This document shows, in pieces, positions 3,533 to 54,434 of a DNA stretch of 64,000 nt. Each line of letters starts with the position of its first letter. Within the stretch, counting starts at the first letter, position 1. A model generated the notes under the pieces. The model was not told where the DNA came from and made no database searches. It saw nothing but the letters and a program-made list of their open reading frames with translations. The translations under genes were made by a program, and so were the position numbers. This stretch comes from Thermoproteota archaeon (GTDB taxonomy: Archaea; Korarchaeota; Korarchaeia; B14-G2): positions 93,887-157,886 of the forward strand of contig JAVCBW010000005.1 in the NCBI GenBank assembly GCA_037917675.1, written 5' to 3'.

Positions 3533-6500
3533 CTACCTTCTGGTCCTCATCACCCTGCCTGGAGCAGGCTCATATATCACACCTTGGTCATACTTCTCTC
3601 TATATACCCTCAGTACAGCTCTCCTTATCTTCTCTGGGTCAAGCTCAGGGTTGCTGGCCTTAATCGCGTTAGTGACGCGATCTATCAGCTTGTCTCTTGG
3701 GACACCCATCCTTGATACAGCTATCCCTGATTCAGCTGCCTCAGCTAGCATCTCATCTAGCACCCTGTCGAAAGTCTCTCTGACCATCACACTGGAAGAA
3801 AACACTCCTACATGCACTGCTCTTATGTCTCTTCTCCCTGTGAAGGGGTCTATTGCGACATCTGTGTACATAGCTTCCATCAGAGCTATAGCTGCTAGCG
3901 CGTCCTCTGCTGTCACCTTGCTTCTCAGATGCATTCTTGCTCTGGCCATTGCAAGCCTAACTAGAGCCTCCAGCTGCCTTGGAGTGACTGCTAGAGACTT
4001 TTTCGTGTCTCTGCTTTCGTCTCTAAGCTTCACATAGTAGTCTTCAAGTATTTTGCTGGCTTCCTCCGTCATCTTCGGCATCACTTTCTGCCTGGCATGT
4101 GCTATGTACTTTCTTAAGAGCTCTGGTGGTATTATTGGTGTTGCTAAAGCCGTGTCTCCTCCTCTAGTCTTTAGAATATGCTTTGCTATAGCCCTGTCCT
4201 TCTGGGGCTCAGGGACGTCATGTAGCCTCAAGATGAGGTCGAATCTCGATGTTATGGTCGGAGGGAGGTTCACGTTCTCAGTTATCGGGAGCTCTGGGTT
4301 ATATATGCCATCCTTAGGGTTGGCGGCAGCTATTATCGTTGTCCTAGCATTTAACGTAGCTATTATGCCTGCTTTAGCTATGGATATCGTGTTGTGGAGC
4401 ACTAAGCCGTCTCCTATGATGGAATGAGTAGGGTTAACCTGTATGTCATAGACCCACTTATCCTTATTTGGCTCTACACTCTTTGAGGAGACCTCAGCCC
4501 ATGCTAGCTTAGACTTTAGGAGAAACTCTGCTGACCTCACTACCTGAAGGCTCTTCTCTGTGAGGGGAGCTTTCCTTAATGCCTTAAGCACTTCTAACGC
4601 CTTAGTTCTGCTGGAGGATATAGCTTCTGAGGAGGCTGCTAGCCCTACCTCGTGAGCTAACTCAGCTAGGTGTTCTGCAAGAGGTTTAGGTAGCAGCCTG
4701 CAGCCTGGCGATAGGAGGGCAGGAGACCAGTCACCTACCTTTATGGAGCTAGCTGGGATAGTCTTTAGTATGCCATCTTCGCCCATAACGTAAACTGGGT
4801 GATCTGGTGTGACCTTCAGTATGCTGCCATTCGAGTACCTTATGGTGATGATGTTCTCTGGAGGCTTATGACGGCTTACTGCTGTAGCATCAGCTGGATA
4901 GATTCTTTTGAAGTCTGTTGTGAGAACTCTCAGCTGTCCCTTCTTTAGCTTGAGGATCTCGCAGTCTATGCCTTGCTCTACCCTAGCTCTCTCCTCTAGG
5001 AGAAGCTTGTCTACTAGCTCTCCGATCTGGACGAGGTCTCCGCTCTCAAGCTTGATCAGCTGAGATGGGTGAAAGGACTGCTGTTCCATTGCTTCATGTA
5101 TTGCTATCCTGTCATTCCTATCCATCTTGTCAAACTCGTCTATAGCAGCTATTCCCCGGTCTGCTATGATAAGTGCACCAGCCTCCAGTGACCACCCTCC
5201 AGTCAGGGGGTCTTTGACTACAGCAGCAGTCAATCCAGCTGCTGTAGATCCCTTTCCAGTAGTATATATTGCTCTTGGAGCCACCTTAGCTATGAACTTG
5301 AGTATCTGGCTGTTATGTAGAACTATGAAGTTTCCTATGAAGTTTAGAGTACTGCTGACCTGGACATCATAAACCCAGCCGTCACCTTCTACCTCAGAGA
5401 TTTTCACTACCCTATCCCAGCTTACATGTGAGGTAGCTATAGCCTTAGCAGTCTCTATGAGCTTCCTGTTCTCAGGGTAGGTGAGCTGCTTACATGCTCT
5501 TATCACGTCTAAGAGCTGCCCTCTTCTCAGCCCACACCTCTTAGCTAGCTCCCTTACATCTCTAGCTGACCTAGCTACATGAGGATTTGTCGCAGTTAAT
5601 AGTATCTCCCTTGCTTCCTTCATTTTCTTCTCAGCTGCCTCTACTAGAGCTGCTAGATGCTCTCTTCTGATAGGCGCGTCTCCTCTCTCTACTCTAGCTA
5701 GTGTAGATGCAGGGGCATTTATCTCTCTATACTTGAGGCTAAAGTTCCTCTTGAGAGCTGAGACCAGTGAGGATACGCAAGGTATCTTTGAGCTTCCATC
5801 TAGTGTAGGCGAGTCATCGCTGTTTATGTGGCTTACTTGAGATCTGGTTAGAGTTATGCTGTGGCTATCATGCTCCTTTGCTACTACTCCAACTCTAAGC
5901 AGAAGCAGCCTTAGGTTATTGAGCGAGCTTCTGCTTTGAAGCCTTATCTTAATTGCCTTCCCTTCCTCATAGCAGCTCACAAACCCCTTAAGGAACGCTG
6001 CTATCTGCCTCCTGCTTGCTGAAAGCATGCTTTCAGGTACTCTTCTTCTCTTGGCTACTAGCTCAGGCACCTTCTCTTCAATGAGCTCACCAAGCTTCTT
6101 GGACCTCCAGTACAGTAACATGCTACGCTTCGATGTAGTTATGATCTTAACCTGGCTCTTCACCTCAAGCTTATCGAGAGCTTCCTTAAGCAGCTCTAGA
6201 GCTCTCTTGTTTGCCCTCAGCTTGAAAGTATACCAGCTCTTCGACTTCTTCACCTCACCTCTAGCTGCAAGCATACCAATCAGCGTGTACAGAAAGCTAT
6301 CGTCTATGGACCTTGAGCGCAGAGGCTTCTGCTGTGGAGATGGGAGGAAGCCAAGTACTGCTATGTAGTCTCCTGGCTTGAGCTCTTCCGCCTTCACTGG
6401 CAGGAGAGCCCCGCCTTTGCTCTTGAAGAAGAGGTGGTCTGGTGTAACTTTGACTTCTAGCCCGGATTCCGTCCTGATTTTAAGCAGCTTCCTGTCTGCA

Positions 6501-7654
6501 GGCTTTCTGGCTACAGCATCTGGTGTAGTGAATACAGCCTTTCCTTCTCTAGATATTGTGAGGACCTCTGGTAGATCTCCCATGTTATATAGCTCCTCTA
6601 TGGTGATCAAGCCTTCTCTCGTTAATACTAGTGTGTCTCCTGTTACACACTTTGCTGTCCCTGGGTCGCCTACTAGGAGTATGTTGACTTCTCCTCTTAT
6701 CCTTGTTCCATCAGGTAGCTCTATGGGTACTCCACCGAAGAGAGCGTATGCTATCCCCTTCTTGACTACTTCCCAGCCATATATTGATGGAGCTATTGAC
6801 TGCACTATCAGCTCCTCTAGCTTCGGAGACCTCGCAAGCTCAAGTATCTTCTCCTCTTCCTCTGGAGTTATCTCTATCTGTTCGAACTCCCTTGGAGGAG
6901 TCTTCACTGAGTTGACGTCTAGTATCATGTTGAAAATAACGTCTGCCTTACCTTTCCTCTTCTCTACTAGCCTAGGTACCCCTACTACTGTCACTCGGTC
7001 ACCAGGCTTCACTACATCGACCAAGTCATCTACGAGAATACAGTCTATTGAACGAGGCATTGTCCCGGGAGGGAGCTCCTCAGGCATCTCCTGAAGCTTT
7101 ATCCTCTGCCAGTCTAAGAGCTTGCTTTCCTCTTGAACCAGCTTGAGCCCTCTGCTTCCACAGCTCTCACAGATCGACGGCTTAGAGAGCCACCTGCTTG
7201 GCTGGGGTACCTCTACTTCTGCTCCACAGCTCTCACATCTGAACTTAGCTACATCAAGCTTGAAGGCTACCTCTGAGCATGATGTAACTATCCCCTTGAC
7301 TGAGATAAGCTTGTTCAAGTGCTTAGATGACACACCTCTCAAGGGTATTTCAGCCATCAGGTCCACTATTCTTGGATAGAACTTTGTAGCCTCAGCATAC
7401 TCTGGGTCTATTATAGAGACTCTCCTCCTTATGACCTCAGATGCCGCTAGAAGCACCCTATCAGGGTTATCTACAAGCTCTCTGGCTAGCTTCACGTTAA
7501 AGCTCCAGAGATCTCTGTAGCTTATCTCAAGTGATTTCCTTCTATCAACAGACAGCTGTCCTATCTGCTCATAGTACTTCCTTCTCCCTGACTCGTCTCT
7601 GAACTCTATGAAAAACTCCTCGAAAGCCTCTTCTATACTTCTCCTGTCCATCAA
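3533..7654 (-). CDS. mcm: MCM replicative helicase (1373 aa precursor) containing two inteins.
   Basis: An MCM N-terminal domain with a Zn finger (CESCG...CESCG) is present. Walker A is split as GDPGTAK|C...LHN|SQILKF. The arginine-finger region is split as HEAMEQQ|S...LHN|TISIAKAGI. An SRFDL motif follows. Confidence 0.85.
4391..5077 (-). mobile_element. MCM intein 2 (about 229 aa), inserted between EAMEQQ and TISIAKAG.
   Basis: It starts [21 protein letters not shown] (Ser nucleophile, block-A like) and ends GLVLHN with +1 Thr. The flanking exteins reconstitute the conserved [19 protein letters not shown] motif. Confidence 0.6.
5312..6649 (-). mobile_element. MCM intein 1 (about 446 aa), inserted immediately after the Walker A lysine. 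It probably carries a degenerate LAGLIDADG endonuclease domain.
   Basis: The N-terminal block is [13 protein letters not shown], the C-terminal end is FIVLHN, and the +1 residue is S. An internal [20 protein letters not shown] segment resembles LAGLIDADG motifs. Confidence 0.65.
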
Positions 7655-9850: not shown

Positions 9851-10363
9851 ATGCCAGAAGAGCTCACGTGTATACTGGATGCGTCAGCGTTCATTGGAGG
9901 CCTTAGCCCCTTTTCGATCAGATGCCATAGGATCCTGACGTGCAGCAGTGTTATAGAGGAGCTAGCTGACATCAAGAGCTCCTCCTACCTGGAGGCAGGG
10001 CTTGCATCCAAGAGAATCGAAGTCATAGACCCTGAGGAGAGGTATGTTAGAGAGGTTGCCGAGGAGGCGAAGAGGAAAAGCCTCTATAAGGCGCTCTCCA
10101 CAACAGATATAGAAGTTTTAGCACTCGCGCTACAGGAGAGAAGTAGAGGGAATGCTGTGATCGTATACACTGATGATCAAGTTATGCAGAGCATGTGCAT
10201 CTACATGAAGCTGAGGTGGAGGGGAGTAAGGAGGAAGGGCGTAAAGAGGCCTGTCAGCATAGAGGTCAGATGCAAGCTCTGTGGAAAGAGCTATGGCAAG
10301 CTGGACTTAGAGGAATGCCCGCTATGTGGCGGTGAGCTCGAGGTTGTAAGGAGATATGGATGA
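9851..10363 (+). CDS. nob1: Nob1-like endonuclease (PIN domain plus C-terminal zinc ribbon).
   Basis: An N-terminal PIN-like fold is present (ILDASAFI..., D residues). The C-terminus is CKLCGKS...CPLCGGELEV. Confidence 0.6.
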   Translation: MPEELTCILDASAFIGGLSPFSIRCHRILTCSSVIEELADIKSSSYLEAGLASKRIEVIDPEERYVREVAEEAKRKSLYKALSTTDIEVLALALQERSRGNAVIVYTDDQVMQSMCIYMKLRWRGVRRKGVKRPVSIEVRCKLCGKSYGKLDLEECPLCGGELEVVRRYG

Positions 10364-11508
10364 AGCTCTCTCTAAAGCTTGAGACCGACGTACTCGAGCT
10401 TGTTAGGCTAGTTTATGGAGCTAAGACGGATGCCGTCTTGAGGACGCTAGCTACCCCTACATCCAGGTACTTTGTCAGAGTAAACACCATTAAGACAAGC
10501 GTAGAGAGGCTGCTGAGAAGCCTCTGGAAAAGGGGGATCGAAGTACACGTGCACCCTGAGGTTGAAGAAGCCCTCTACTTCCCTGTAAAGGGACCATTCA
10601 CGCTGCAGCAGCTTGAAAGAGAAGTCAGGGCTGACAAGAAGGCTGCTGAGAGCGTTATACAGGGAGCAGACCTGTACTGCCCAGGGGTATTAAGAGCTAG
10701 TAGCGGCATCAAGAATGGAGATGAAGTCTCTATAGTAGAGGAGTATACTGGAGCTCATGTAGCCAATGGCATAGCAGTCATAGGCAGGAGAAGGATGCTT
10801 TCCTGTAGAAGAGGGAGAGCAGTTAGAGTTACACATCCACTGTTTAAGGCACCAAAGATCAGAGAGATGCCTGAGTACAGTGAGGGACTAATATACCCTC
10901 AAACTCTACCTTCAATGCTAGCAGTGCTAGCGCTGGAACCTTGGAGACACAGCCGGATACTAGATATGTGTGCAGCACCAGGTGGAAAGCTCACTTACAT
11001 CATGCAGCTAGCCCCACATGCTGAAGTCATAGGAGTAGATAGGAATAGGAAGAAGATCATGGAGATTAAGCAGACTATTGCAAGGCTGAAGATTCGGGAG
11101 GCAAAGCTACTAGTAGAGGACTCCAGATACCTTGACATCAGATACCCCTCACTCAGACCAGACGCCATACTCTTAGACCCCCCATGTTCAGCTTTAGGAG
11201 TGAGACCTAAGCTCTATGACAAGAAGACCAGGAGGGACGTAGAAGCCTTAGCGTGCCTCCAAAGACAGCTTCTGAAGGTTGCTGCAAAGATCCTCAAGCC
11301 TGGTGGGACTCTAGTTTATAGTGTTTGCACCGCGACAGCTAACGAGTGTGAGAAGAATGTAGAGTATGCAACTGCCCTGGGACTCGAGCCAACAGAACCC
11401 CATGAAGTGGTCAGAAAGCTTGGAGAAGCTTCAGATGGAGCTGTCAGATTCCACCCTCACATCCATGATACACCAGGCTTCTTCATAGCTGTCTTCACAA
11501 AGCAGTAG
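10360..11508 (+). CDS. RNA cytosine-C5 methyltransferase (NOL1/NOP2/Sun family) with an N-terminal PUA-like domain.
   Basis: The SAM motif DMCAAPGGKLTYI, DPPCSALG and the catalytic Cys region SVCT are present. There is a 4-nt ATGA overlap with nob1. Confidence 0.7.
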   Translation: MKLSLKLETDVLELVRLVYGAKTDAVLRTLATPTSRYFVRVNTIKTSVERLLRSLWKRGIEVHVHPEVEEALYFPVKGPFTLQQLEREVRADKKAAESVIQGADLYCPGVLRASSGIKNGDEVSIVEEYTGAHVANGIAVIGRRRMLSCRRGRAVRVTHPLFKAPKIREMPEYSEGLIYPQTLPSMLAVLALEPWRHSRILDMCAAPGGKLTYIMQLAPHAEVIGVDRNRKKIMEIKQTIARLKIREAKLLVEDSRYLDIRYPSLRPDAILLDPPCSALGVRPKLYDKKTRRDVEALACLQRQLLKVAAKILKPGGTLVYSVCTATANECEKNVEYATALGLEPTEPHEVVRKLGEASDGAVRFHPHIHDTPGFFIAVFTKQ

Positions 11509-11512
11509 AAAA

Positions 11513-11525
11513 CATTTAATATCCC
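11513..11525 (+). promoter_or_regulatory. tRNA promoter (TATA/BRE-like catttaatatccc).
   Basis: It lies about 23-35 nt upstream of the tRNA start. A near-identical motif (acatttttatccc) precedes the second tRNA-Leu at 15116-15128. Confidence 0.45.
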
Positions 11526-11547
11526 TGTAAGCAAAGTAATAGCTTAG

Positions 11548-11645
11548 CGGGGGTAGCCAAGCCTGGCCAACGGCGGCAGAAGCTGCTGAGACTCAAGATC
11601 TGCTCCCTTAGGGGTTCGTGGGTTCAAATCCCACCCCCCGCACCA
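11548..11645 (+). tRNA. tRNA-Leu (anticodon CAA). It has a type II variable arm and probably an 11-nt intron at a non-canonical position; CCA is encoded.
   Basis: The acceptor is GCGGGGG/CCCCCGC. The D-arm is GCC-AAGCCTGGCCAAC-GGC. The anticodon stem GCAGA/TCTGC encloses 18 nt ending CTCAAGA. The variable arm is TCCCTTAGGGG, the T-arm is GTGGGTTCAAATCCCAC, and the 3' end is ACCA. Confidence 0.7.
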
Positions 11646-11772
11646 TATCTAAAGGCCTGCTAAAGGCCTGCATGGAGATTGTATCCTCAAAATTGATCCA
11701 CCTGAAGGTGCGCACTTCTTAAGAATAAGAGTAGCATACGAACCATTGAACCGCTCTATTGAATAGAAGGAA

Positions 11773-12828
11773 TTGTTAAAAAATATAATTAGAATGGGAG
11801 TAGAAGTAAATGGAGTTATGACCGATGATGGCTTACATGTTAATGGAACAGATTTAACAAAAGCAATAAGCCAAAGATTTTGGATCAACTATTACATACT
11901 AAAACCTGAAGAAGATTCTGATGGAGATGGAATACCAAATAGCATTAAAATAGGTGAGAACCATTACAGAGCTTTAGATACTAATCCAAGAATACTAGAT
12001 CCAAAACCCATTAAAAATAGTATGAGTGTTGGAGTTTGGTATATTACAGGCTGGGGACTGAAAGGAAGATCAGTCGATTGGTCAATAGGCGCATCATTTC
12101 ATTCTCTTTTAGGAAATTATTCTTCTAATGATCCTGACGTAGCGGATTGGCATATAAAGTGGGCTGTTGAACATGGGATAAATGTCTTTATATCCCCTTA
12201 TACAAAGCCTTTATGGGGATGGGAGAATAATCTTGAAGATGGATTGCTAAGAGCTAGGTTCTTACCTTATATTAAGTGGGCAATCATGTTCAACAATGAA
12301 CCATTTTGGCCTGGAAATCCATTTGGATTTGATCCTTCTTACCTAGACAAGCTAACTAATGAAACAATAAGCTATATCGCAAAAAACTATTTTGACAGCC
12401 CTTCCTACTTTAAAATTGATAATAAACCTTTAATGATATACAACGCGGCAGTTTATCATGATGATATCATTGGCCATGAAAAATTTAGTAAGTTTATTGA
12501 TGAAATTCGAAATATCACAAATAGAACAGGAAATTCTGTTTATCTTGTAGGAGATGTTATGAGTACGTGGATAGGCTATGATGAAAATGCATTAAAACAT
12601 GCTAAAGAAGTTATAAGTTCTCTCGACGCAGTCTCCGCTTATGCAGTCCTAGATGCTGGCGAACATTGGGAATTTGATGAAAAAGGAAATGTACACCTAA
12701 TAAAACCCTACGATACTATGGTTGATGTTGTCACGATAAGTTTGACAAAACGGTCTAACGTATTTTTACCAAAGCTTATCTTCATAGCTCACCACTCAAC
12801 TCATGTCGGCCTTACAGGCCTTAGTTGA
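11773..12828 (+). CDS. AT-rich hypothetical protein with a DxDxDG calcium-binding motif and a glycoside-hydrolase-like central region. Its C-terminus is probably disrupted.
   Basis: It has roughly one-third GC by eye, against about half elsewhere. A DSDGDGIPN motif is present. W/F/Y-rich segments (WHIKWAVEHGINVF..., NNEPFWPGNPFGFD) resemble GH-like proteins. The composition switches near 12780, just before the IS fragment. Confidence 0.35.
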   Translation: MLKNIIRMGVEVNGVMTDDGLHVNGTDLTKAISQRFWINYYILKPEEDSDGDGIPNSIKIGENHYRALDTNPRILDPKPIKNSMSVGVWYITGWGLKGRSVDWSIGASFHSLLGNYSSNDPDVADWHIKWAVEHGINVFISPYTKPLWGWENNLEDGLLRARFLPYIKWAIMFNNEPFWPGNPFGFDPSYLDKLTNETISYIAKNYFDSPSYFKIDNKPLMIYNAAVYHDDIIGHEKFSKFIDEIRNITNRTGNSVYLVGDVMSTWIGYDENALKHAKEVISSLDAVSAYAVLDAGEHWEFDEKGNVHLIKPYDTMVDVVTISLTKRSNVFLPKLIFIAHHSTHVGLTGLS

Positions 12829-12830
12829 TA

Positions 12831-12983
12831 TGGTTAAGGAGGCGAAGGTGTTCAAGCGCAACAAGACTCCGTTGGAGAAGAAGGTGCTCGCCAGCATGCT
12901 ATGCTTTGCCGGCCTATCTTACAGGAAGGTAGCTAGCTTGGTCGATGGATGTCGAGGATGGCGGTGCAACGGGCATTCATAGC
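12831..12983 (+). pseudogene. Fragment of an IS transposase (N-terminal HTH region only).
   Basis: A 50-aa ORF (MVKEAKVFKRNKTPLEKKVLASMLCFAGLSYRKVASLVDG...) resembles the HTH N-terminus of archaeal IS transposases. It is followed by out-of-frame residual sequence with no catalytic domain. It abuts the truncated AT-rich ORF. Confidence 0.35.
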
Positions 12984-13234
12984 TATGAAGAGCTTACCTA
13001 AGCCTGAGGAGGGAAGGCTTCCCACTACATGAGTAAAAGTATGAATGTAGCGGGAAACCAGAACGGGAAATGTAGAGAGCATTTTGACGTCACGGTTTGA
13101 GATGTAGGATTGTCGAATTCTTCATGGATATCTGAGAGCAATAGCAGATTATGCTCAGATGGTCTTTAGCAAAGTTAATCTAGAGATCTGCTAGCAGAGT
13201 TTAGCGGAGTTTCCATCTGCACTTGGTGTAGGAT

Positions 13235-13993
13235 ATGAGGCTGTCGACGACACTTGCTATAATGGTACTGGGGGTGTTAGCTATCACAGCAGTCAGTTTC
13301 CTGATTCCTGGCAGAGAGGGGAAGGCGCCTTTTGAGCTTGAAGTCAGGTTTCAAGCTTCGGAGAAGTGTGTCTATGAGAGCACTAGCAGAGGTGGTGTGG
13401 CCAAAGTTGTTATGGAGTTGACTTCTCAGGTAGAGCTTAATGGAAGCATGTTCTATAGGATAGTTGGGAGTATACATGAGGAGGATGGAGAAAACAGTTA
13501 TGTTGTGAGAGAGGAGCTTCTAGCGTCATGCAATAGCCTTCTGCCTATCATAGTGAACCTCACATATGTAAACAATAGTGTTGTCGTCGCTAGGCTTAAC
13601 ATGACGTTCAGTCAGGAGAAGGGGAAGGTTCTGATATGCTTCTACAGAGCTGGGCTTGAGGATGCTAAGGTAGTGTGCATAGAGCCAGGTAGGAGGGTTT
13701 ATGACTCGCTCTCAGAGCTCTACTTCCTCAGGTCTATCAAGTGGAGAGAGGGTGTTATGGCTAGGTTCTATCTTTTGGCGTCAGACTTTAAGGTTGAGGA
13801 GGTGGAGGCTTCCTTTGCAGGATACGAGAGCCTGGTGGTCCCAGCTGGAAGCTTCAGCTGTGTTAAAGTCTTTGTTAGAACGCCTAGGGATGAGATATGG
13901 GTCTGGATAAGCTTAGATTCGCCTCACCAGATAGTTCAGATAGAGAGTAAGAGGGAGCAGTCTCTTCTCAAGCTTGTAGACTACAGCAGCTAG
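13235..13993 (+). CDS. Secreted or membrane-anchored hypothetical protein (N-terminal signal/TM).
   Basis: The N-terminus MRLSTTLAIMVLGVLAITAVSFLIP is hydrophobic. No recognisable domain was found. Confidence 0.4.
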   Translation: MRLSTTLAIMVLGVLAITAVSFLIPGREGKAPFELEVRFQASEKCVYESTSRGGVAKVVMELTSQVELNGSMFYRIVGSIHEEDGENSYVVREELLASCNSLLPIIVNLTYVNNSVVVARLNMTFSQEKGKVLICFYRAGLEDAKVVCIEPGRRVYDSLSELYFLRSIKWREGVMARFYLLASDFKVEEVEASFAGYESLVVPAGSFSCVKVFVRTPRDEIWVWISLDSPHQIVQIESKREQSLLKLVDYSS

Positions 13994-15003
13994 CTGGGCT
14001 CTTTAAGCAGGCTAGCTATGCTCTCAGATAGTACTATAACGTTAGTCTTCCCCTGAGGTCTCTTGATGACAAACCCTTTCTCCTCAAGAGCCTTTAAGAT
14101 CCTGCTGACTTTAGCCTTAGATAAGCCTGTTGCCTCTGGGAGCTCCTTTTGCAGCATAGATCCCCCAGCATCAAGCACCACTCTCAGAATAGCCTTCTCG
14201 TCTTCAGTAAGCAGATCCATGCGGGCTACCTTGGGGCCCTTACCTCTCCTCCTAATTCTCATGAGAAGTAAAGCTGCTATCATACCTCCTACTGTAGCTG
14301 CAGCTATGCCTGCTGCTAGGAGAGGGGCTTTAGTCCCCTCACCTGCTACGATAGAAGCTGATACAGAGACTCTCTGGCCTGGATCTAGATGGCTGAAGCC
14401 CCACTCTATGGTCATCTTACCGGACCAAATGTTTAACTCTGTTCTGTTTGGTGTCGGGAAGTATATGGGGAGAGCTTCGACTATCTGCTTCGCCATGTAT
14501 CCCTCTGGGAGGACGAACTTTATCAGAAGGCTGTTGACAGAGGCGTTTGGGCAGAAGAACTCATAGGACACATAGAGCTTCTCACCTTCGAGGACGCCGA
14601 CTCTGACATTGCGCCTGTAAGCATAAACGAACATCTTGAACTTGAACTCCTTGCTTGATCCAGGAGGAATACTGTCTTGGAAAGTTAACATCACGGAGTC
14701 ACGGAATCCAGAGACATTGCTTATGACTTTAACTGTATACCTCTGCTCACCTCCTATAGGCTCTGGAATAACCTCGCTTACCCTGTACTTCCTGAGAGCC
14801 TCAGGGGGTATGACTGGGAAAACCAGAGATCTTACTGGAACTTGCCCGCTATTCGACACGAGCCCTGAGACTACTATGGTAACTGGCGCGTCTGCTGGAG
14901 GAATAAGCAACTCCACCTCGAGCCTAGAGATAGTTGCCTCAGCCTGCTGAGGAAGGAGCGCTATAAAGGCTAGTAGAGCAAGCGACATTATCATCTTGAT
15001 CAA
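13990..15003 (-). CDS. Single-pass membrane protein with an extracellular domain and a cytoplasmic C-terminal winged-HTH (TrmB/MarR-like). This is a candidate transmembrane one-component regulator.
   Basis: It has a signal peptide (MIKMIMSLALLAFIALLPQQAEA), a roughly 230-aa ectodomain, a TM segment (LLAAGIAAATVGGMIAALLLM), an RIRRRGK stop-transfer, and then a wHTH (DEKAILRVVLDAGGSMLQKELPEATGLSKAKVSRILKALEEKGFV). Confidence 0.5.
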   Translation of the reverse strand: MIKMIMSLALLAFIALLPQQAEATISRLEVELLIPPADAPVTIVVSGLVSNSGQVPVRSLVFPVIPPEALRKYRVSEVIPEPIGGEQRYTVKVISNVSGFRDSVMLTFQDSIPPGSSKEFKFKMFVYAYRRNVRVGVLEGEKLYVSYEFFCPNASVNSLLIKFVLPEGYMAKQIVEALPIYFPTPNRTELNIWSGKMTIEWGFSHLDPGQRVSVSASIVAGEGTKAPLLAAGIAAATVGGMIAALLLMRIRRRGKGPKVARMDLLTEDEKAILRVVLDAGGSMLQKELPEATGLSKAKVSRILKALEEKGFVIKRPQGKTNVIVLSESIASLLKEPS

Positions 15004-15152
15004 AACATGACACCTTTAACATGATGGTATTGAGACTCCTAGCTGCTGGCATCTTTATACTTTTTCCTGAGCTGGCCTCAGTCTAAGGCATAGGTGAGAG
15101 GGAATACCTAAGATAACATTTTTATCCCAGAGCTTAGAGAGTATAGGTGAAT

Positions 15153-15271
15153 GCGGGGGTTGCCGAGCCTGGACAAAGGCGCAGGAGCCGTTATGGCGGT
15201 GTGACTTAAGATCTGGGTGGTGAGGCATCCTGTCCCTTAGGGGTTCGTGGGTTCAAATCCCACCCCCCGCA
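15153..15271 (+). tRNA. tRNA-Leu (anticodon UAA) with about 34 nt of intronic sequence that appears to flank the anticodon loop on both sides. CCA is not encoded.
   Basis: The acceptor is GCGGGGG/CCCCCGC. The anticodon stem CAGGA/TCCTG encloses 41 nt containing CTTAAGA. The variable arm TCCCTTAGGGG and the T-arm are identical to those of tRNA-Leu(CAA). Confidence 0.65.
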
Positions 15272-43722: not shown

Positions 43723-44826
43723 GTGGAAGGTGAGAGGGCTATTTTCGAGTACAGGGGCTTCAACGAGATATACTACGAGAGCGGAGGAGGCATAGACGAG
43801 CTATATGAAAAGGGGTATGTTGAGAAGCTTCCAAGTGGAGAGTATGTGATGCCATCAGTAGCAGCAGTCCACTTGCTTGAGCAAGGTAAGGTGGTGATAA
43901 GGGAGGAGGGGAGAGAGGTTACAGCACTGGAGGTCTTAGAAGATGCTGTGAAAGCTAGCCCAGACAATATACTAAGGTACTTCGTCTTTAAGGATCTCAG
44001 AACAAAGGGGAGGCTAGCTAAAGTTGAACTTAACACCCCGTTCATAAGGCTATACCCAAGAGGAGGGAGAGTAGGAGAAACACCAGCAACCACGCTGATC
44101 TACTGCATATCAGAGGATAAGCCCATAAGGCAGAGCGAAATACTGGAGAAGATAAAGTATGCTCAGCTAGCTAGGAAAAGCCTCATATTTGCAGTAATCG
44201 ATGACGAGATGAACATAAGCTACTATGCTGCAGAGGAGTTCGAGCCAAAGAAGATACGTGAAGTAGACTTATCCTTTCCTGAAGCTGATGGCATAGTCAT
44301 GCATGACAGAGTCATAGTATGGGACCATGAAGTTGGGAATGCCATATATAAGGCAGGTTTCTGGGGGCACTTTATAGGGGTAGCTAAGCCGAGGCATGAC
44401 CAGTACTATGAGAAGCCACTCCAGCTCTCCCTGACCGAGGCATGCTATCTAGCTGAGAAGAAGAAGATAAAGCTATATAGGGTAGGGACACATAGCCTAG
44501 TGAGCACCAAAGAGATAGCTGAGCTTCATGCTAAAAGCAGGGTTAAGGGAGCAGAGAAGATAGTAGCATACACATACTGGAGGGATAGGGGATACGTAGT
44601 TAAGCCAGCGTCAAAGTATGGGGTGGACTTCATGTTCTATGAGCTTGGGCCGGGAATAGACCATGGGCCCTATATGTGCCTCGTCTCAACCCCTGATGAA
44701 ATGATACTCCCAGTTGAGCTTATCAGAGCAGGGCGTATAGCGACTTCAGTGAGAAAAACCTTTGTTGTGACCGTAGTTGATGGGAGTAGAGTAGTTAACT
44801 ATAAGTTCAGCTGGAGGAAGCTTTAA
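43723..44826 (+). CDS. endA: tRNA-splicing endonuclease, long two-repeat form (degenerate N-terminal unit plus catalytic C-terminal unit).
   Basis: The C-terminal unit is SLTEACYLAEKK...AYTYWRDRGYVVKPASKYGVDFMFYELGPGIDHGPYMCLV, with catalytic Tyr/His/Lys as in the archaeal EndA active site. The N-terminal unit is YFVFKDLRTKGRLAKV...LIFAVIDDEMNISYY. The start is GTG. Confidence 0.7.
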   Translation: MEGERAIFEYRGFNEIYYESGGGIDELYEKGYVEKLPSGEYVMPSVAAVHLLEQGKVVIREEGREVTALEVLEDAVKASPDNILRYFVFKDLRTKGRLAKVELNTPFIRLYPRGGRVGETPATTLIYCISEDKPIRQSEILEKIKYAQLARKSLIFAVIDDEMNISYYAAEEFEPKKIREVDLSFPEADGIVMHDRVIVWDHEVGNAIYKAGFWGHFIGVAKPRHDQYYEKPLQLSLTEACYLAEKKKIKLYRVGTHSLVSTKEIAELHAKSRVKGAEKIVAYTYWRDRGYVVKPASKYGVDFMFYELGPGIDHGPYMCLVSTPDEMILPVELIRAGRIATSVRKTFVVTVVDGSRVVNYKFSWRKL

Positions 44827-46218: not shown

Positions 46219-46857
46219 ATGCGGGTGATTAAGGTAGATTATGACAAGCCAGATAGAAAAGCTATTGAGATGGCAGTTGAGGTGCTGAAGCTCGGTGGGC
46301 TTGTAGTATACCCCACAGACACAGCGTATGCGCTTGGAGCTGATGCGCTCAACACCAGAGCTGTCCTAGACGTCTATGCAGCAAAAAGGAGGCCTCTTAA
46401 CAGGTACCTGACGGTAACAGTCTCTGACACTAAGATGGCAGAAGAGTATGCGATAGTGACTGACATAGCTAGAGCTATCATGGAGAGACTCATGCCTGGG
46501 CCTATCACAGTGATTCTCCAGAAGAGGGCTAGGATACCTGATGTAGTGAACCCTAGGCACATCGGCATAAGGATCCCAGACTGTAAGATTGCAGTAGAGC
46601 TAGCTAAGAGGCTTGGGAGGCCTGTTGTAGCGACGAGCGCAAACATAACAGGTATGCCTCCACCCTACTCTGCTCTTGAAGCATATAGACAGCTCGGGAG
46701 CCTAGTACACTTAGTGCTAGATGCAGGACAGCTGCCTATCAGGAAGCCTTCGACGATAGTGGATGTAACAGGAGCTGCACCTACCTTAGTGAGAGAGGGG
46801 CCTGTCTCATTCTCAGAGATCCTTAGGGAGGTGAGGGATGCTATCGCTAGGCATTGA
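46219..46857 (+). CDS. L-threonylcarbamoyladenylate synthase (YrdC/Sua5-like, short form).
   Basis: Supporting sequences are VVYPTDTAYALGADA, KRRP and ...SANITG. Confidence 0.75.
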   Translation: MRVIKVDYDKPDRKAIEMAVEVLKLGGLVVYPTDTAYALGADALNTRAVLDVYAAKRRPLNRYLTVTVSDTKMAEEYAIVTDIARAIMERLMPGPITVILQKRARIPDVVNPRHIGIRIPDCKIAVELAKRLGRPVVATSANITGMPPPYSALEAYRQLGSLVHLVLDAGQLPIRKPSTIVDVTGAAPTLVREGPVSFSEILREVRDAIARH

Positions 46858-47884
46858 ATCTACTGCTCACACGTTTGGAATAGGTGTAGTGACAAGTGAG
46901 GGCAGGATACTAGTAGATGAGAGAGCTGTCTATACGCCTCCATCAGGAGGTATAAAGCCTCAGGAGGCAAGTGAACACCACTATCATGCTGTGAGTGAGG
47001 TCATAAAAAGGGTCTTTAACACCATTAAACCAGAGGATATAGGTGTAGTGTGCTTTTCAAGAGGCCCAGGGCTACCACCCTGCCTTAGCATAGGAGCTAT
47101 AGTAGCAAGAACTCTAGCACATGCACTTGGCAAAAAGCTGATAGGAGTTAACCACTGTACTGCACATGTTGAGCTAGCTAGACTGCTCTCAGGATTCCAT
47201 GACCCAGTTATCGTCTATGTGTCAGGAGGCAACACGCAGGTAATAGCGTACTCTGAGGGGAGATACAGGGTTTTCGGGGAGACTGAGGACCTTGGGCTTG
47301 GAAACGCCCAGGATAAGCTTGCCAGAGAGCTTGGAGTCCCGAACCCACCAGGCCCCTACATGGATAAGGTCGTTGGGAAGTGGATAGAGCTACCCTATAC
47401 TGTGAAAGGCATGAATCTCGCCTATAGTGGGCTGGTTACAGAAGCTGTCAAGAGAGCTAAGCAGGGGGCTAGAGTAGAGGATGTGATTTATAGCTTCATG
47501 GAGGTCAGCTTCTCCATGCTAGTTGAAGTAGCTGAGAGGGTGCTAGCGCACGTGGGTAAACAGCAGCTTACGCTCACAGGAGGAGTTGCAGCCTCACCGA
47601 AACTGAGAGAGAAGTTCAGGCTGATGTGCGAGGAGAGGGGAGTAGAGTTCTATGCAGTAGAGCCGAAGCTAGCTAGAGACAATGGAGCTATGATAGCTTG
47701 GACAGGTATACTAGCATACATGCAAGGTAAGTGGATGGATGAAAGCTGGATTAAGCCAAGCTGGAGAATAGATGATGATAGCTGGGAGCTTATCGATCTA
47801 ACCAAGCTGGTGGAGAAGGGAGGTGACGTATGTGAAGATACTTGTAAGCGGGCTAGCAGGCACTGGAAAGACGACGCTATGTAA
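46838..47884 (+). CDS. kae1: Kae1/TsaD tRNA N6-threonylcarbamoyladenosine transferase.
   Basis: Supporting sequences are LGIESTAHTFGIGVV, HCTAHVE and VSGGN. Confidence 0.85.
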   Translation: MLSLGIESTAHTFGIGVVTSEGRILVDERAVYTPPSGGIKPQEASEHHYHAVSEVIKRVFNTIKPEDIGVVCFSRGPGLPPCLSIGAIVARTLAHALGKKLIGVNHCTAHVELARLLSGFHDPVIVYVSGGNTQVIAYSEGRYRVFGETEDLGLGNAQDKLARELGVPNPPGPYMDKVVGKWIELPYTVKGMNLAYSGLVTEAVKRAKQGARVEDVIYSFMEVSFSMLVEVAERVLAHVGKQQLTLTGGVAASPKLREKFRLMCEERGVEFYAVEPKLARDNGAMIAWTGILAYMQGKWMDESWIKPSWRIDDDSWELIDLTKLVEKGGDVCEDTCKRASRHWKDDAM

Positions 47885-51592: not shown

Positions 51593-52543
51593 ATGTCCAT
51601 GAGGGTAACAATCCTAGGGTCAGGAGGAACATACCCTACACCAGAGAGGGGGCTACCTGCCATAGCAGTCAGGATGCCAGGGAGACTCTACCTGCTAGAC
51701 TGTGGGGGATGCACTCAGAGGCAGATTTTCAAAGGGAAGCTCAAGATAGGCCCTCTTACACACGTCTTCATAACCCACTTGCATGGAGACCACGTCTTCG
51801 GCATCTTTGGGCTGCTTCAGACTTTATCTCTGCTTGACAGAAAGAAGCCACTGTGTGTAGTTGGCCCTGAGGGAATAGGAAGCTTGATTGAAGAAGTCGG
51901 TAGGTGGACTCGGCTTAAGCCAAGCTATGAGCTTTCAGTCATAGAAGTCGGTAGGGAAAGGGTCTTTGAGCTTGACACACACTACATCAAGCTGTTTCCA
52001 GTAAGCCATGGCATCCCAGCATTTGGGATAGCGATAGAGGAGAAGCCTAGGCCAGGGAAGTTCGATGTAGAGAAGGCTGATAAGCTAGGAGTTCCAGTCC
52101 ACCTTAGAAAGGACCTCCAGCTCGGCAAGGCCATCAAGACACCATCTGGGAAGCTAGTATATCCGGAAGATGTGCTAGGAGAAAGTAGGCCAGGGAGGAA
52201 GATCGTTTACACAGGAGACACATCTCCCTGTGATAGAGTTGCTAGAGAAGCTAAGGGAGCAAACCTGCTAATACATGACTCAATGTATCTGGTTGGAGAC
52301 GAGGAGCTCGCTGAGGAGGGGGTACATAGCAGCTATCGAGATGCATGTGAGGTAGCTGCAGCATGTGAGGTAGGCCTTTTGCTCCTAACGCATTTCAGCC
52401 CAAGATACAGGATGGAAGACGTGCTGAGGGCTGAAAAAGCTGCTAGAAGCTACTTCCCTAGGACTATAGCCTGCAGAGACTTCACTACAGTTGAGATCGA
52501 CTTCTCTGGCGCCTGCCATGTTGTCGAAGCTGGTATGCAATAG
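51593..52543 (+). CDS. rnz: Ribonuclease Z (tRNA 3'-processing metallo-beta-lactamase).
   Basis: Supporting sequences are ILGSGG, HLHGDHVFG and the C-terminal HFS and H motifs. Confidence 0.85.
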   Translation: MSMRVTILGSGGTYPTPERGLPAIAVRMPGRLYLLDCGGCTQRQIFKGKLKIGPLTHVFITHLHGDHVFGIFGLLQTLSLLDRKKPLCVVGPEGIGSLIEEVGRWTRLKPSYELSVIEVGRERVFELDTHYIKLFPVSHGIPAFGIAIEEKPRPGKFDVEKADKLGVPVHLRKDLQLGKAIKTPSGKLVYPEDVLGESRPGRKIVYTGDTSPCDRVAREAKGANLLIHDSMYLVGDEELAEEGVHSSYRDACEVAAACEVGLLLLTHFSPRYRMEDVLRAEKAARSYFPRTIACRDFTTVEIDFSGACHVVEAGMQ

Positions 52544-52967: not shown

Positions 52968-54377
52968 TTGGACAGCATCCTGAAGCTCATATCAAGTGAG
53001 GTGACACCGAAACCAGAGGAAAGAGAGGCTTTAGAGAGGGCTGTATCAGAAATCACGAGGAAGCTGCAGGATATCAGAGACAGATATGGGTGGAGATATG
53101 AAGTAATGCATCTGGGGTCGACAGCAAGAGACACATGGCTTTCTGGGAGCAGAGACATAGACATCTTTCTAGCATTTCCCTTAGATGAAGGCGAGAGTGC
53201 AATGGAGGAGATAGGTGTTAGAGCTGGGATAGAGGTGTCAGGTGGAAGATATAAGCTGCTTTACTCAAGCCACCCATATGTCAGAGTGGAGCATAGAGGC
53301 TTTGAGATAGACATTGTACCATGCTATAGGATAACAGATGTATCTCAGCTTAGGAGCGCAGTCGATAGGACACAGCTGCACCAGAAGTATCTGGAGGAGA
53401 AGCTGACTCCAGAGCTATGCAGTGACATAAGGCTGATGAAAGCCTTTGCTAGGGGGGTTGGGGTATATGGAGCTGAAGCTAAGACTAGAGGCTTCTCAGG
53501 ATATCTACTAGAGCTCATAGTCCTCTACTATGGGAGCTTCCTTGAAGCGATCAAGGAGGCATCAATGTGGAAGCCTCCTATAGTAATCGACATAGAGGGG
53601 TATTATGCTCCGAGAGAAGCTAGAGAGGTCTTTGACTCCCCTATTATAGTCGTGGACCCAGTGGATAGGAGAAGGAATGCTGCTGCATCAGTGAGCAAGC
53701 AGGCACTATCAGCCTTCATAGCAGCCTCCTCGCTCTTCCTAGCAAGGCCCAGCATTGCCTTCTTCAAGCCACCACAGAAAAAGCTACCTGACAAGGTCGA
53801 AAGCCACTTTGCAATAGTGGCTTTCAAGCTGACTAGGGCTCCACCAGATGTCCAGTGGAGCCAGCTTGAGAAGACATGTAACAAGGTCAGAGCATACCTG
53901 GAGGAGCAGGGAGCTCAGGTATTGGGGGCTAGCTTCTGGACAGATGAAGATATCAGAGGTGCTTTAGCATTTAAGTTCGCTAGCTGGCAGATACCAGAAG
54001 CTAGAGTGCACTATGGGCCATTTGTCTGGCAGAAGGAAGAGAGCTTGAAGTTCATAGACAAGCATCTTAGGAGAGAGGATACGATTGAAGGCCCTTTCAT
54101 ACAGGACTTCAGGTGGGTTGTGGTGAAGAGAAGAGAGAGAAGTGTGCTGAGCATTTTGAGGAGCCTTGTATCTAGTATGAGCATCATGGTGTCAATTGGG
54201 GTACCTGCAAGGATAGCTGAGTGCATAGAGAGGGAGCACATGGTCTTAACTGAAAGGGATATAGCAGCCATAAGGGGCACAGAGCTAGAAGAGTTCCTGT
54301 CGGAGCTACTGGATAGAACTCCTCAGTACGTCAAGTGGGGCCGGCGGGACTTGAACCCGCGACCTCCAGCGGTCTAG
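52968..54377 (+). CDS. cca: CCA-adding tRNA nucleotidyltransferase, archaeal class I.
   Basis: Supporting features are GSTARDTWLSGSRDIDIFLAFP (Pol-beta NT motif) and the typical length. The last 14 codons run antisense through the neighbouring tRNA gene. Confidence 0.8.
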   Translation: MDSILKLISSEVTPKPEEREALERAVSEITRKLQDIRDRYGWRYEVMHLGSTARDTWLSGSRDIDIFLAFPLDEGESAMEEIGVRAGIEVSGGRYKLLYSSHPYVRVEHRGFEIDIVPCYRITDVSQLRSAVDRTQLHQKYLEEKLTPELCSDIRLMKAFARGVGVYGAEAKTRGFSGYLLELIVLYYGSFLEAIKEASMWKPPIVIDIEGYYAPREAREVFDSPIIVVDPVDRRRNAAASVSKQALSAFIAASSLFLARPSIAFFKPPQKKLPDKVESHFAIVAFKLTRAPPDVQWSQLEKTCNKVRAYLEEQGAQVLGASFWTDEDIRGALAFKFASWQIPEARVHYGPFVWQKEESLKFIDKHLRREDTIEGPFIQDFRWVVVKRRERSVLSILRSLVSSMSIMVSIGVPARIAECIEREHMVLTERDIAAIRGTELEEFLSELLDRTPQYVKWGRRDLNPRPPAV

Positions 54378-54434
54378 CAGAGGCCCCAGGCTCACGCCTG
54401 TGTTGGCGCCCTAGCCAAGCTGGGCCACGGCCCC
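54336..54434 (-). tRNA. tRNA, 99 nt, containing an intron or introns. The isotype is unresolved; a CUGCUAG loop would give Ser-GCU.
   Basis: The acceptor is GGGGCCG/CGGCCCC. The D-arm is GCCC-AGCTTGGCTA-GGGC. The T-arm is GCGGG-TTCAAGT-CCCGC. The discriminator is A. About 24 nt of excess sequence lie in the anticodon region. Confidence 0.6.

Follow-up and report, generated by a model that had tools for sequence, protein, structure and literature searches.

Two regions of archaeal DNA read as tRNA-Leu genes, with additional nucleotides inserted into the anticodon arm of each. The question arises whether these inserts are removed by splicing, and if so at which positions and by which enzyme, or whether the genes are decaying. 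Both regions lie in a stretch of 64,000 nucleotides of contig JAVCBW010000005.1 (assembly GCA_037917675.1), referred to here as the window; loci from other genomes and metagenomes are denoted by L numbers. Gene structure, fold geometry and conservation lead us to the conclusion, held with considerable confidence, that window positions 11547-11642 and 15153-15271 represent functional genes for tRNA-Leu(CAA) and tRNA-Leu(UAA) (genes 1 and 2, respectively) of an uncultured archaeon related to the Kor-7 group of marine Korarchaeota, carrying protein-spliced introns of the bulge-helix-bulge (BHB) class.

Gene structures and spliced products

The tRNA-Leu(CAA) gene (11547-11642, + strand) is composed of exon 1 (11547-11579), an intron of 11 nt (11580-11590; AAGCTGCTGAG) and exon 2 (11591-11642, ending in A73). 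Its layout is GCGGGGG-TA-GCCA...CGGC-G-GCAGA-(18 nt)-TCTGC-TCCCTTAGGGGT-T arm-CCCCCGC-A. The Rfam tRNA model scores the unspliced gene at 38.3 bits within the 64-kb window, and ARAGORN with introns enabled reports Leu(caa) with an 11-nt insert. Removal of the 11 nt in silico leaves 85 nt, for which ARAGORN returns a perfect Leu(caa) cloverleaf. This product aligns without gaps to an intronless tRNA-Leu(CAA) from a metagenome-assembled genome (MAG) of Nitrososphaerota (L008), with 82/85 identical positions; the mismatches are one base in the D loop and the compensatory pair 32/44 (gene numbering).

The tRNA-Leu(UAA) gene (15153-15271, + strand) contains two introns, namely intron A (15186-15203, 18 nt; AGCCGTTATGGCGGTGTG) and intron B (15211-15226, 16 nt; ATCTGGGTGGTGAGGC), which separate exon 1 (15153-15185), the short exon 2 (15204-15210, ACTTAAG) and exon 3 (15227-15271). 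It is laid out as GCGGGGG-TT-GCCG...AGGC-G-CAGGA-(41 nt)-TCCTG and continues with the 39-nt 3' part found in gene 1. The two genes are thus identical in their last 39 nt (variable arm, T arm, 3' strand of the acceptor stem and A73) and in the 5' acceptor strand GCGGGGG. Unspliced, gene 2 is not detected by the Rfam tRNA model even at E <= 10. Without the 18 + 16 nt it yields 85 nt and a perfect Leu(taa) cloverleaf (ARAGORN on the sequence spliced in silico), and 79/85 positions are identical, again without gaps, to an intronless tRNA-Leu(UAA) of a Candidatus Korarchaeum sp. MAG (L101), the mismatches including two compensatory stem pairs. Splicing in silico restores the canonical cloverleaf with an anticodon loop of 7 nt in both tRNA-Leu and in a tRNA-Pro of the window that is described below.

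An initial annotation of this DNA had named both isoacceptors as genuine intron-containing genes at these positions. It had described acceptor, variable and T arms as identical, and anticodon stems GCAGA/TCTGC and CAGGA/TCCTG as enclosing 18 and 41 nt. All of this is borne out by the present analysis.

Interrupted genes for tRNA-Leu(UAA) are also known from cyanobacteria and plastids, where the insert is a group I intron, a self-splicing ribozyme longer than 200 nt at position 34/35. The inserts of gene 2 have the identity of the host tRNA in common with that class, and nothing else: they measure 16-18 nt and are located at 30/31 and 37/38, the window contains no Rfam match to group I introns, and the host is an archaeon that encodes a splicing endonuclease (see below). 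A group I intron can therefore be dismissed.

Register of the splice sites

Short repeats at the exon-intron junctions allow each intron to be written in 2-4 registers that yield the same mature sequence. Every equivalent register was scored for BHB geometry, i.e. a central helix (H) of 4 bp with both strands cut between the second and third bulge nucleotide, and for the outer helix (h) and the helix h'. This convention agrees with a published review, in which positions 32-35, including the first two anticodon bases, form the central helix of an intron at 37/38 (PMC4090602). Exactly one register fits the BHB geometry in each intron.

For the intron of tRNA-Leu(CAA), the repeated AGA makes positions 28/29 to 31/32 equivalent as long as the window is considered alone. 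Among these four registers, 30/31 is the only one with a BHB (H 4/4, h = 2). Helix H is formed by tRNA positions 25-28 (CGGC) and intron nucleotides GCUG, the 3' bulge reads AG↓A (arrows mark cuts), and the 5' site is located in a loop of 7 nt. This corresponds to a non-canonical intron of the relaxed bulge-helix-loop (BHL) form. Intron A of tRNA-Leu(UAA) is likewise non-canonical and fits at 30/31, here in the full hBHBh' form (H 3/4, h = 3, h' = 4), with h = 0 in its two other registers. Positions 25-28 (CGCA) face GGUG, giving three base pairs and one A x G, the helix h' is a hairpin GCCG/UGGC, and GG↓A and UG↓A form the two bulges. Intron B can be written from 37/38 to 40/41. At the canonical position 37/38 it displays H 4/4, formed by C32 U33 U34 A35 and UGAG, with h = 2 (intron A still present), h' = 2 and bulges AG↓A and GC↓A; none of its three alternative registers fits.

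A free scan for relaxed BHB geometry returns dozens of chance candidates per gene. It was replaced by a test that is limited to excisions restoring a tRNA and is controlled by shuffling of the intron sequences. For the five introns of the window (those of the tRNA-Pro included), the observed BHB quality is reached by shuffled introns with a probability of 0.013-0.18 per intron, and of ~6e-8 jointly.

These registers differ from those of the initial annotation, which had placed the upstream introns at 31/32 and the second intron of tRNA-Leu(UAA) at 38/39, both introns of the latter gene being regarded as non-canonical. Since GA and A/TC are repeated at the junctions, that model predicts the same mature tRNAs from the window sequence. 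However, excision at 31/32 finds 0/4 helix pairs in tRNA-Leu(CAA) and 3/4 without an outer helix in tRNA-Leu(UAA), and 38/39 reaches 2/4 with h = 0. Moreover, the orthologue of gene 1 in the related contig L002 (see below) carries T after GCAG, so that excision at 31/32 cannot restore the stem there and this position is excluded. We regard the model as highly improbable in its exact form. Parts of it persist: gene 1 does harbour a non-canonical intron of 11 nt in the 5' strand of the anticodon stem, located at 30/31 according to both BHB geometry and L002, and gene 2 does harbour two introns, of which the first is at 30/31 and the second is a canonical 37/38 intron with a textbook BHB.

Conserved exons and diverged introns in a Kor-7 relative

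A methyltransferase gene of the RsmB/NOP2-PUA type (10360-11508, + strand) is located directly upstream of tRNA-Leu(CAA). The only close homologue of its product is 75% identical, and all others stay at or below 48%. The contig of this homologue (L002) displays the same gene order and both tRNA-Leu genes; the tRNA genes of L132 (GCA_003661385.1) and L133 are identical to those of L002. A homologue search with the membrane/helix-turn-helix protein encoded next to gene 2 returned the same Kor-7 species only.

Exons of both tRNA-Leu genes are identical at 85/85 positions between the window and L002, L132 and L133, and all differences fall within the introns. The L002 intron of tRNA-Leu(CAA) has 12 nt (TGAAACGCTGAG); its loop part has another sequence and one extra base (after the first base, TGAAAC versus AAGCT), and the helix-plus-bulge sequence GCTGAG at its 3' end is kept. 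Intron A of tRNA-Leu(UAA) differs from that of L002 by a single change (T to C), which is located in the hairpin loop, and intron B by three changes, located in the loop and the 3' bulge.

The closest relatives are MAGs from the Guaymas Basin, with a protein identity of 71-87% (three proteins), conserved gene order and identical tRNA exons. GCA_003661385.1 is MAG B14_G2 from Guaymas Basin sediment and belongs to Kor-7, one of three basal marine groups of Korarchaeota (PMC10469681, Table S2). Judged by these identities, the organism of the window is a different species in the neighbourhood of Kor-7. The initial annotation had pointed to a host resembling Thermoproteales or Thermofilum, a notion that is not sustained: the relatives are Korarchaeota of Kor-7, the splicing endonuclease is a fused protein rather than the product of two genes of the (alpha-beta)2 type, and the Thermofilum homologue of the neighbouring methyltransferase is 46% identical, no nearer than that of Bathyarchaeota.

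This comparison also bears on the identity of gene 2. With option -i, ARAGORN reports it as tRNA-Leu(GAG) with a single intron of 32 nt inside the anticodon loop. Such a tRNA would have a G x A mismatch at 31:39, a shifted register of the arm and a product of 87 nt, and its excision would lack a BHB (H 1/4). What would be positions 37-38 of such a tRNA are UA in the relative instead of GC, and ARAGORN calls the copy of gene 2 in L002 (4120-4238) 'Thr(agt)'. The Kor-7 relative also possesses a separate, proper tRNA-Leu(GAG) (L083, 1929-2026) with a canonical intron of 12 nt (BHB 4/4, h = 6), and gene 2 is therefore not required as the GAG isoacceptor. Together with the close match of the two-intron product to an intronless tRNA-Leu(UAA), these observations leave the GAG assignment next to no probability, less even than the 31/32 model, and gene 2 is treated as tRNA-Leu(UAA) with two introns throughout.

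The divergence between the two species further helps to judge whether the loci could be decaying pseudogenes or assembly artefacts, with random inserts that are not spliced. Such a view might draw on the 38 bits of gene 1 and the failure of the Rfam tRNA model on gene 2, on foreign low-GC DNA inserted right after gene 1, and on the fact that the loci are known here from DNA sequence alone. Nevertheless, exons are 100% conserved and introns diverged between species that are ~25% apart at the protein level, BHB geometry is found in all inserts, and the promoter boxes described below are conserved. The window sequence is recovered in independent assemblies (Logan and NCBI), and no intronless copy of tRNA-Leu(CAA) or tRNA-Leu(UAA) was seen among the loci of this lineage. 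Decay or artefact thus appears very unlikely, and functional, spliced genes are the reading adopted here.

Introns at position 30/31 in other archaeal tRNA-Leu genes

At least ~110 archaeal tRNA-Leu genes share the 3' end of the window genes, and ~45% of them, among the matches listed, are longer than 85 nt. Within the same set of matches, non-canonical or multiple introns occur in many tRNA-Leu genes of Nitrososphaeria, Bathyarchaeia and Caldarchaeales. Multiple and non-canonical introns had been called a hallmark of Thermoproteales in the initial annotation; besides being frequent in this survey of tRNA-Leu, they are also described for Thaumarchaeota, Nanoarchaeota, the archaeal Richmond Mine acidophilic nanoorganisms (ARMAN) and Korarchaeum (PMC4033280, PMC8450103), and are not exclusive to Thermoproteales.

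Scanning of metagenomes for tRNA-Leu(YAA) with an insert in the 5' strand of the anticodon stem yielded the Kor-7 loci and contigs from soil and peat. In the latter, tRNA-Leu(CAA) carries an intron of 15-16 nt at 30/31 (30 nt in L130), with the 3' ends GCCGAG, GCTGAG, GCCGAC or GGCGTT, in addition to an intron at 37/38 and sometimes a third one in the variable arm.

Covariation was analysed in a pseudo-alignment of fixed length, built from 17 tRNA-Leu genes that carry an intron at 30/31 (Korarchaeota, Nitrososphaerales and soil metagenomes). Each row comprises positions 22-30, one base from the 5' end and six bases from the 3' end of the intron, and positions 31-34. Helix positions 25-28 are paired with the intron in 97% of cases across the 17 genes, compared with 27-52% in slid registers. 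Compensatory changes occur at pair 27 (CG, GC, UA and UG) and at pair 28 (CG, GC, AU and GU). The covariation score of 0.399 was reached by 0/500 shuffles (0.143 +/- 0.028). These data argue for helix H as a conserved feature of 30/31 introns in tRNA-Leu.

Compared with the window, the introns of the Nitrososphaerales and soil loci (L004, L037, L042, L059, L065, L073, L075, L093, L106, L123-L130) have the same insertion point and the same architecture, a helix between positions 25-28 and the intron's 3' end with a two-nucleotide bulge after it, often next to an additional 37/38 intron. They differ from the window introns in length (15-50 nt), in interior sequence and in isoacceptor (CAG, UAG, GAG, CAA).

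Further cases were also observed in this material. Three contigs of the Joint Genome Institute from soil or peat (L123, L126, L129) have a tRNA-Leu(CAA) with three inserts, at 30/31, at 37/38 and, of ~20 nt, in the region of the variable arm. A tRNA-Leu(GAG) of 190 nt from 'archaeon isolate B6' (L106) has introns of 50 and 55 nt at 30/31 and 37/38.

A fused splicing endonuclease

The window encodes a tRNA splicing endonuclease, EndA, of 367 aa (43723-44826, + strand) with the Pfam domains tRNA_int_endo (two stretches) and tRNA_int_endo_N. By its sequence matches, it is a fused chain of two units, an N-terminal structural (beta-like) and a C-terminal catalytic (alpha) unit. Residues 187-367 match catalytic alpha subunits with E values from 1e-23 to ~1e-32, such as those of A. 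pernix (3P1Z_B, 8.7e-32), P. aerophilum (2ZYZ_B) and S. tokodaii (2CV8), and residues ~42-172 give weak matches to beta/structural subunits. The context of the catalytic Tyr, His and Lys is conserved (FMFY...GIDHGP...SVRKTF).

The loop motif VAKPR (K222-P-R224) aligns with VEKPR of A. pernix (K44, R46), located in the loop specific to Crenarchaea. In A. pernix, K44 is required for cutting of BHL and non-canonical introns, and grafting of the loop into A. fulgidus EndA broadens the specificity of that enzyme (PMC3241643). Full-length homologues of the window EndA are few, and those with a name are assigned to 'Candidatus Korarchaeota archaeon'; the other Korarchaeota-labelled and the unnamed full-length homologues are 42-52% identical to it. 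The gene neighbourhood GFO-EndA-Hjc-M24-Sua5-Kae1 is kept in full-length homologues. The window EndA is of the fused korarchaeal type, and its loop motif suggests that it could cut relaxed and non-canonical motifs.

tRNA-Pro(GGG) and intron load

The third intron-bearing gene of the window encodes tRNA-Pro(GGG) (54336-54434, - strand; Rfam tRNA 47.2 bits) and contains intron A (54392-54403, 12 nt) at 29/30 and intron B (54372-54383, 12 nt) at 37/38. The two-intron model leads to a perfect Pro(ggg) of 75 nt (ARAGORN on the spliced sequence), H is 4/4 for both introns, and h = 5 for intron A. An ARAGORN call of this gene as 'Ser(aga)' requires an A x C mismatch and was rejected. Exons of the orthologue in L135 are identical, and those in L136 differ at one base of the D loop. 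Intron A of the orthologues differs in sequence (in L136 also in length) and keeps GCGTGA; intron B is an unrelated sequence of 14 nt. As a separate observation, the 3' part of the tRNA-Pro gene overlaps the 3' end of the convergent open reading frame (ORF) for the CCA-adding enzyme (52968-54377) by 42 nt, and the overlap is also present in L135.

All three tRNA genes of the window are thus interrupted, with five introns in total. If the relative is included, 4/4 distinct tRNA genes of this lineage are interrupted, with 6 introns and ~1.5 introns per gene. By eye, no sequence similarity that would hint at intron transposition was seen among the window introns except in the helix-forming 3' ends. 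Pyrobaculum calidifontis carries 71 introns in 46 tRNA genes.

Based on this dataset, we tentatively hypothesize that marine Korarchaeota resembling Kor-7 have an intron load as high as that of the record-holding Thermoproteales. A recurrent BHL intron of very short length, at 29/30-30/31, would make up most of this load; it would be recognized only after opening of the D stem and served by the fused beta-alpha EndA. In that case, the tRNA-Leu intron at 30/31 might be ancient across the archaea of the TACK group (Thaumarchaeota, Aigarchaeota, Crenarchaeota and Korarchaeota), rather than the outcome of recent independent gains. We rate this extended hypothesis as possible and somewhat doubtful.

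Upstream sequences

Both tRNA-Leu genes are preceded by a promoter-like box that resembles a transcription factor B recognition element (BRE) and a TATA box. At gene 1 it reads AACATTTAATATCCC (11511-11525, + strand; -36 to -22 from the 5' end of the tRNA), and at gene 2 AACATTTTTATCCC (15115-15128, + strand; -38 to -25). The two genes share AACATTT(A/T)(A/T)(T)AT at about -36 to -25, which within the window is confined to them. The pattern AACATTTN{1,2}TATCCC has exactly 2 matches in 64 kb, both upstream of the tRNA-Leu genes, with 0.01 expected. The initial annotation had already noted a shared upstream element, which is indeed present; its 13-nt motif does not fit gene 2 as written, the box there being one base shorter (CATTTAATATCCC versus CATTTTTATCCC).

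The core AACATTTTTAT is kept upstream of both genes in L002, L132 and L133, CCC being kept at tRNA-Leu(UAA) only, where the whole box is identical in these three loci. Similarly, TAGTTTTTATTCCCC is found upstream of the tRNA-Leu(GAG) of the relative (L083), and the upstream sequences of the tRNA-Pro genes read ACTCTTTTAACTC and ACCCTTATAACTG. In a typical archaeal promoter, a purine-rich BRE precedes an A/T-rich TATA box, which lies some 25-30 nt upstream of the start. The shared box, centred ~27-31 nt upstream, looks like such an ordinary arrangement and is a candidate promoter.

Behaviour of annotation tools

In its default mode, ARAGORN finds 0 tRNA genes in the whole window. The program needs its intron option, and even so models one intron per gene at most. 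With introns enabled it mislabels these genes and their orthologues as Leu(GAG), Thr(AGU), Ser(AGA), Ser(UGA), Tyr(GUA) or Pro(AGG); the tRNA-Pro orthologues, for instance, are called 'Ser(tga)' or 'Tyr(gta)'. As the calls differ between orthologues, the single-intron solutions are artefacts. At its gathering threshold, the Rfam tRNA model misses the two-intron tRNA-Leu(UAA) of the window and of L002, the tRNA-Pro of L135 (20543-20645) and the single-intron tRNA-Leu(GAG) of L083. For the annotation of MAGs, the consequences are tRNAs that are falsely considered missing (here the only decoders of UUA and UUG that were seen) and phantom anticodons.

Points that weigh against the proposed introns

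Several observations speak against functional genes with BHB introns at these positions, or limit the reach of the evidence. The many chance candidates per gene in the relaxed geometric scan indicate that BHB geometry alone is not discriminating. Constrained folding at 37 C gives the BHB conformers an energy 9.6-12.8 kcal/mol higher than the RNAfold optimum; they need opening of the D stem and were not seen in the minimum-free-energy folds. This objection is weak, because RNAfold also misses the cloverleaf for 2/3 of the mature tRNAs. The central helix of intron A in tRNA-Leu(UAA) has only 3/4 pairs (A28 x G). The covariation pseudo-alignment was built on the splice register chosen by us, and the outer helix h (24:32, 23:33) is invariant and therefore beyond the reach of covariation. 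This lineage is represented by two species only, and since the tRNAs of L132 and L133 are identical to those of L002, covariation within the lineage is limited to these two. Finally, no RtcB gene was seen among the window ORFs scanned.

Proposed mechanism

Transcription of each tRNA-Leu gene would probably start from the ordinary archaeal BRE/TATA promoter ~25-35 nt upstream. For the 30/31 introns, the pre-tRNA may adopt an alternative fold, in which the 3' end of the intron pairs with positions 25-28 (the last nucleotide of the D stem, nucleotide 26 and the anticodon stem's first two nucleotides) to form the central helix of 4 bp. The 3' cut would be made in the bulge of 3 nt, and the 5' cut two nucleotides past the helix, either in a bulge (tRNA-Leu(UAA)) or in a loop (tRNA-Leu(CAA), relaxed BHL). 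Because the motifs at 30/31 and 29/30 use the 3' strand of the D stem, nucleotide 26 and the first bases of the anticodon stem, the enzyme would act on a conformer other than the cloverleaf. Both motifs of tRNA-Leu(UAA) need nucleotides 32-34 and would therefore form one after the other; sequential formation of neighbouring motifs has been described for archaeal tRNAs with multiple introns (PMC8450103).

Cleavage may be carried out by the fused EndA (43723-44826), presumably acting as a homodimer, with the Lys and Arg of its loop permitting relaxed and non-canonical sites; the K44A variant of the A. pernix enzyme loses the loop-side (5') cut of a BHL intron. Predicted junctions of the spliced products are GCAG↓ACUCAAGA for tRNA-Leu(CAA) and CAGG↓ACUUAAG↓AUCCUG for tRNA-Leu(UAA), arrows here marking the joined ends. 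Archaeal tRNA exons are joined by RtcB, and the same is expected for these genes. Maturation of the transcript ends would fall to RNase P, RNase Z and the CCA-adding enzyme. Of these, the window carries genes for an RNase Z-like metallo-beta-lactamase (51593-52543, + strand; Pfam) and for the CCA-adding enzyme (52968-54377, + strand; Pfam), both relevant since tRNA-Leu(UAA) and tRNA-Pro lack an encoded CCA.

Flanking sequences and neighbouring genes

Directly 3' of tRNA-Leu(CAA), CCA is encoded at 11643-11645, where the L002 orthologue has CTC. Given this difference, and the lack of CCA at the other two tRNA genes of the window, the encoded CCA is probably coincidental.

Immediately 3' of the same gene there is a stretch of low-GC DNA of ~1.6 kb (11650-13230; GC 0.32-0.38 versus ~0.49 in the flanks), which is not present in the syntenic relative L002. 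It contains an ORF of 351 aa (11773-12828) with a GH99 match below threshold, short ORF fragments, an 11-nt tandem repeat (CTAAAGGCCTG x2, 11649-11670) and an imperfect inverted repeat (11658-11668 / 13161-13171). An att-like copy of the tRNA 3' end was looked for at the far side of this insertion and none was found. A mobile element directed at the tRNA 3' flank may have left this segment behind.

The window is rich in genes for tRNA maturation, which besides the RNase Z-like and CCA-adding enzymes include the RsmB/NOP2-PUA methyltransferase and Sua5 and Kae1/TsaD (46219-47884, + strand). UniRef names an Ignisphaera homologue of the methyltransferase a tRNA (cytosine72-C5)-methyltransferase. 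A gene for an MCM helicase (3533-7654, - strand, 1373 aa) harbours two inteins (Pfam MCM / Intein_splicing / MCM / Intein_splicing / MCM), and the same architecture is found in the Kor-7 locus L133.

Comparison with known systems

The intron class and the positions 29/30, 30/31 and 37/38 have been described before; 29/30 and 30/31 are on the published list of intron sites in archaeal tRNAs (PMC4090602). Thermoproteales (Pyrobaculum, Thermofilum, Caldivirga) and Thaumarchaeota have short protein-spliced introns with BHB or relaxed BHL motifs like those of the window, with up to three introns per gene and often a non-canonical intron beside the canonical one at 37/38, as in tRNA-Leu(UAA) and tRNA-Pro. 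In contrast to Thermoproteales, the host resembles Kor-7 and has a single fused endonuclease instead of separate alpha and beta subunits, and there is no sign among the window introns of the near-identical 'transposed' introns described for that order.

The (alpha-beta)2 enzymes of A. pernix and P. aerophilum (PDB 3P1Z, 3AJV, 2ZYZ) have the catalytic triad and the Lys-Pro of the loop, followed by Arg, in common with the window EndA. They consist of separate subunits, whereas the window protein unites both units in one chain of 367 aa.

A known counterpart is Korarchaeum cryptofilum, the one well-studied representative of the lineage. Its EndA is a fused protein of two units with a catalytic unit rooted in the (alpha-beta)2 family and with the specific loop (Fujishima et al., 2011; PMC3239211), and its genome contains non-canonical and multiple tRNA introns (PMC3239211, PMC4033280). 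This 'korarchaeal alpha2' enzyme is hence like that of the window: fused, bearing the loop and co-occurring with non-canonical and multiple introns. What is new is the membership of a basal marine korarchaeal lineage and its apparently high intron load. The window provides another independent case of a broad-specificity EndA with the specificity-loop lysine alongside non-canonical and multiple introns, here in the fused form. It supports the published model of co-evolution of EndA and introns and reveals no new mechanism. The two korarchaeal systems differ in lineage, the window belonging to a different, basal marine group, and apparently in the extent of interruption: tRNA-Leu(UAA) and tRNA-Leu(UAG) are intronless in the few loci sampled from Korarchaeum-like genomes (L090, L101, L138, L139), whereas all genes sampled from the lineage of the window are interrupted.

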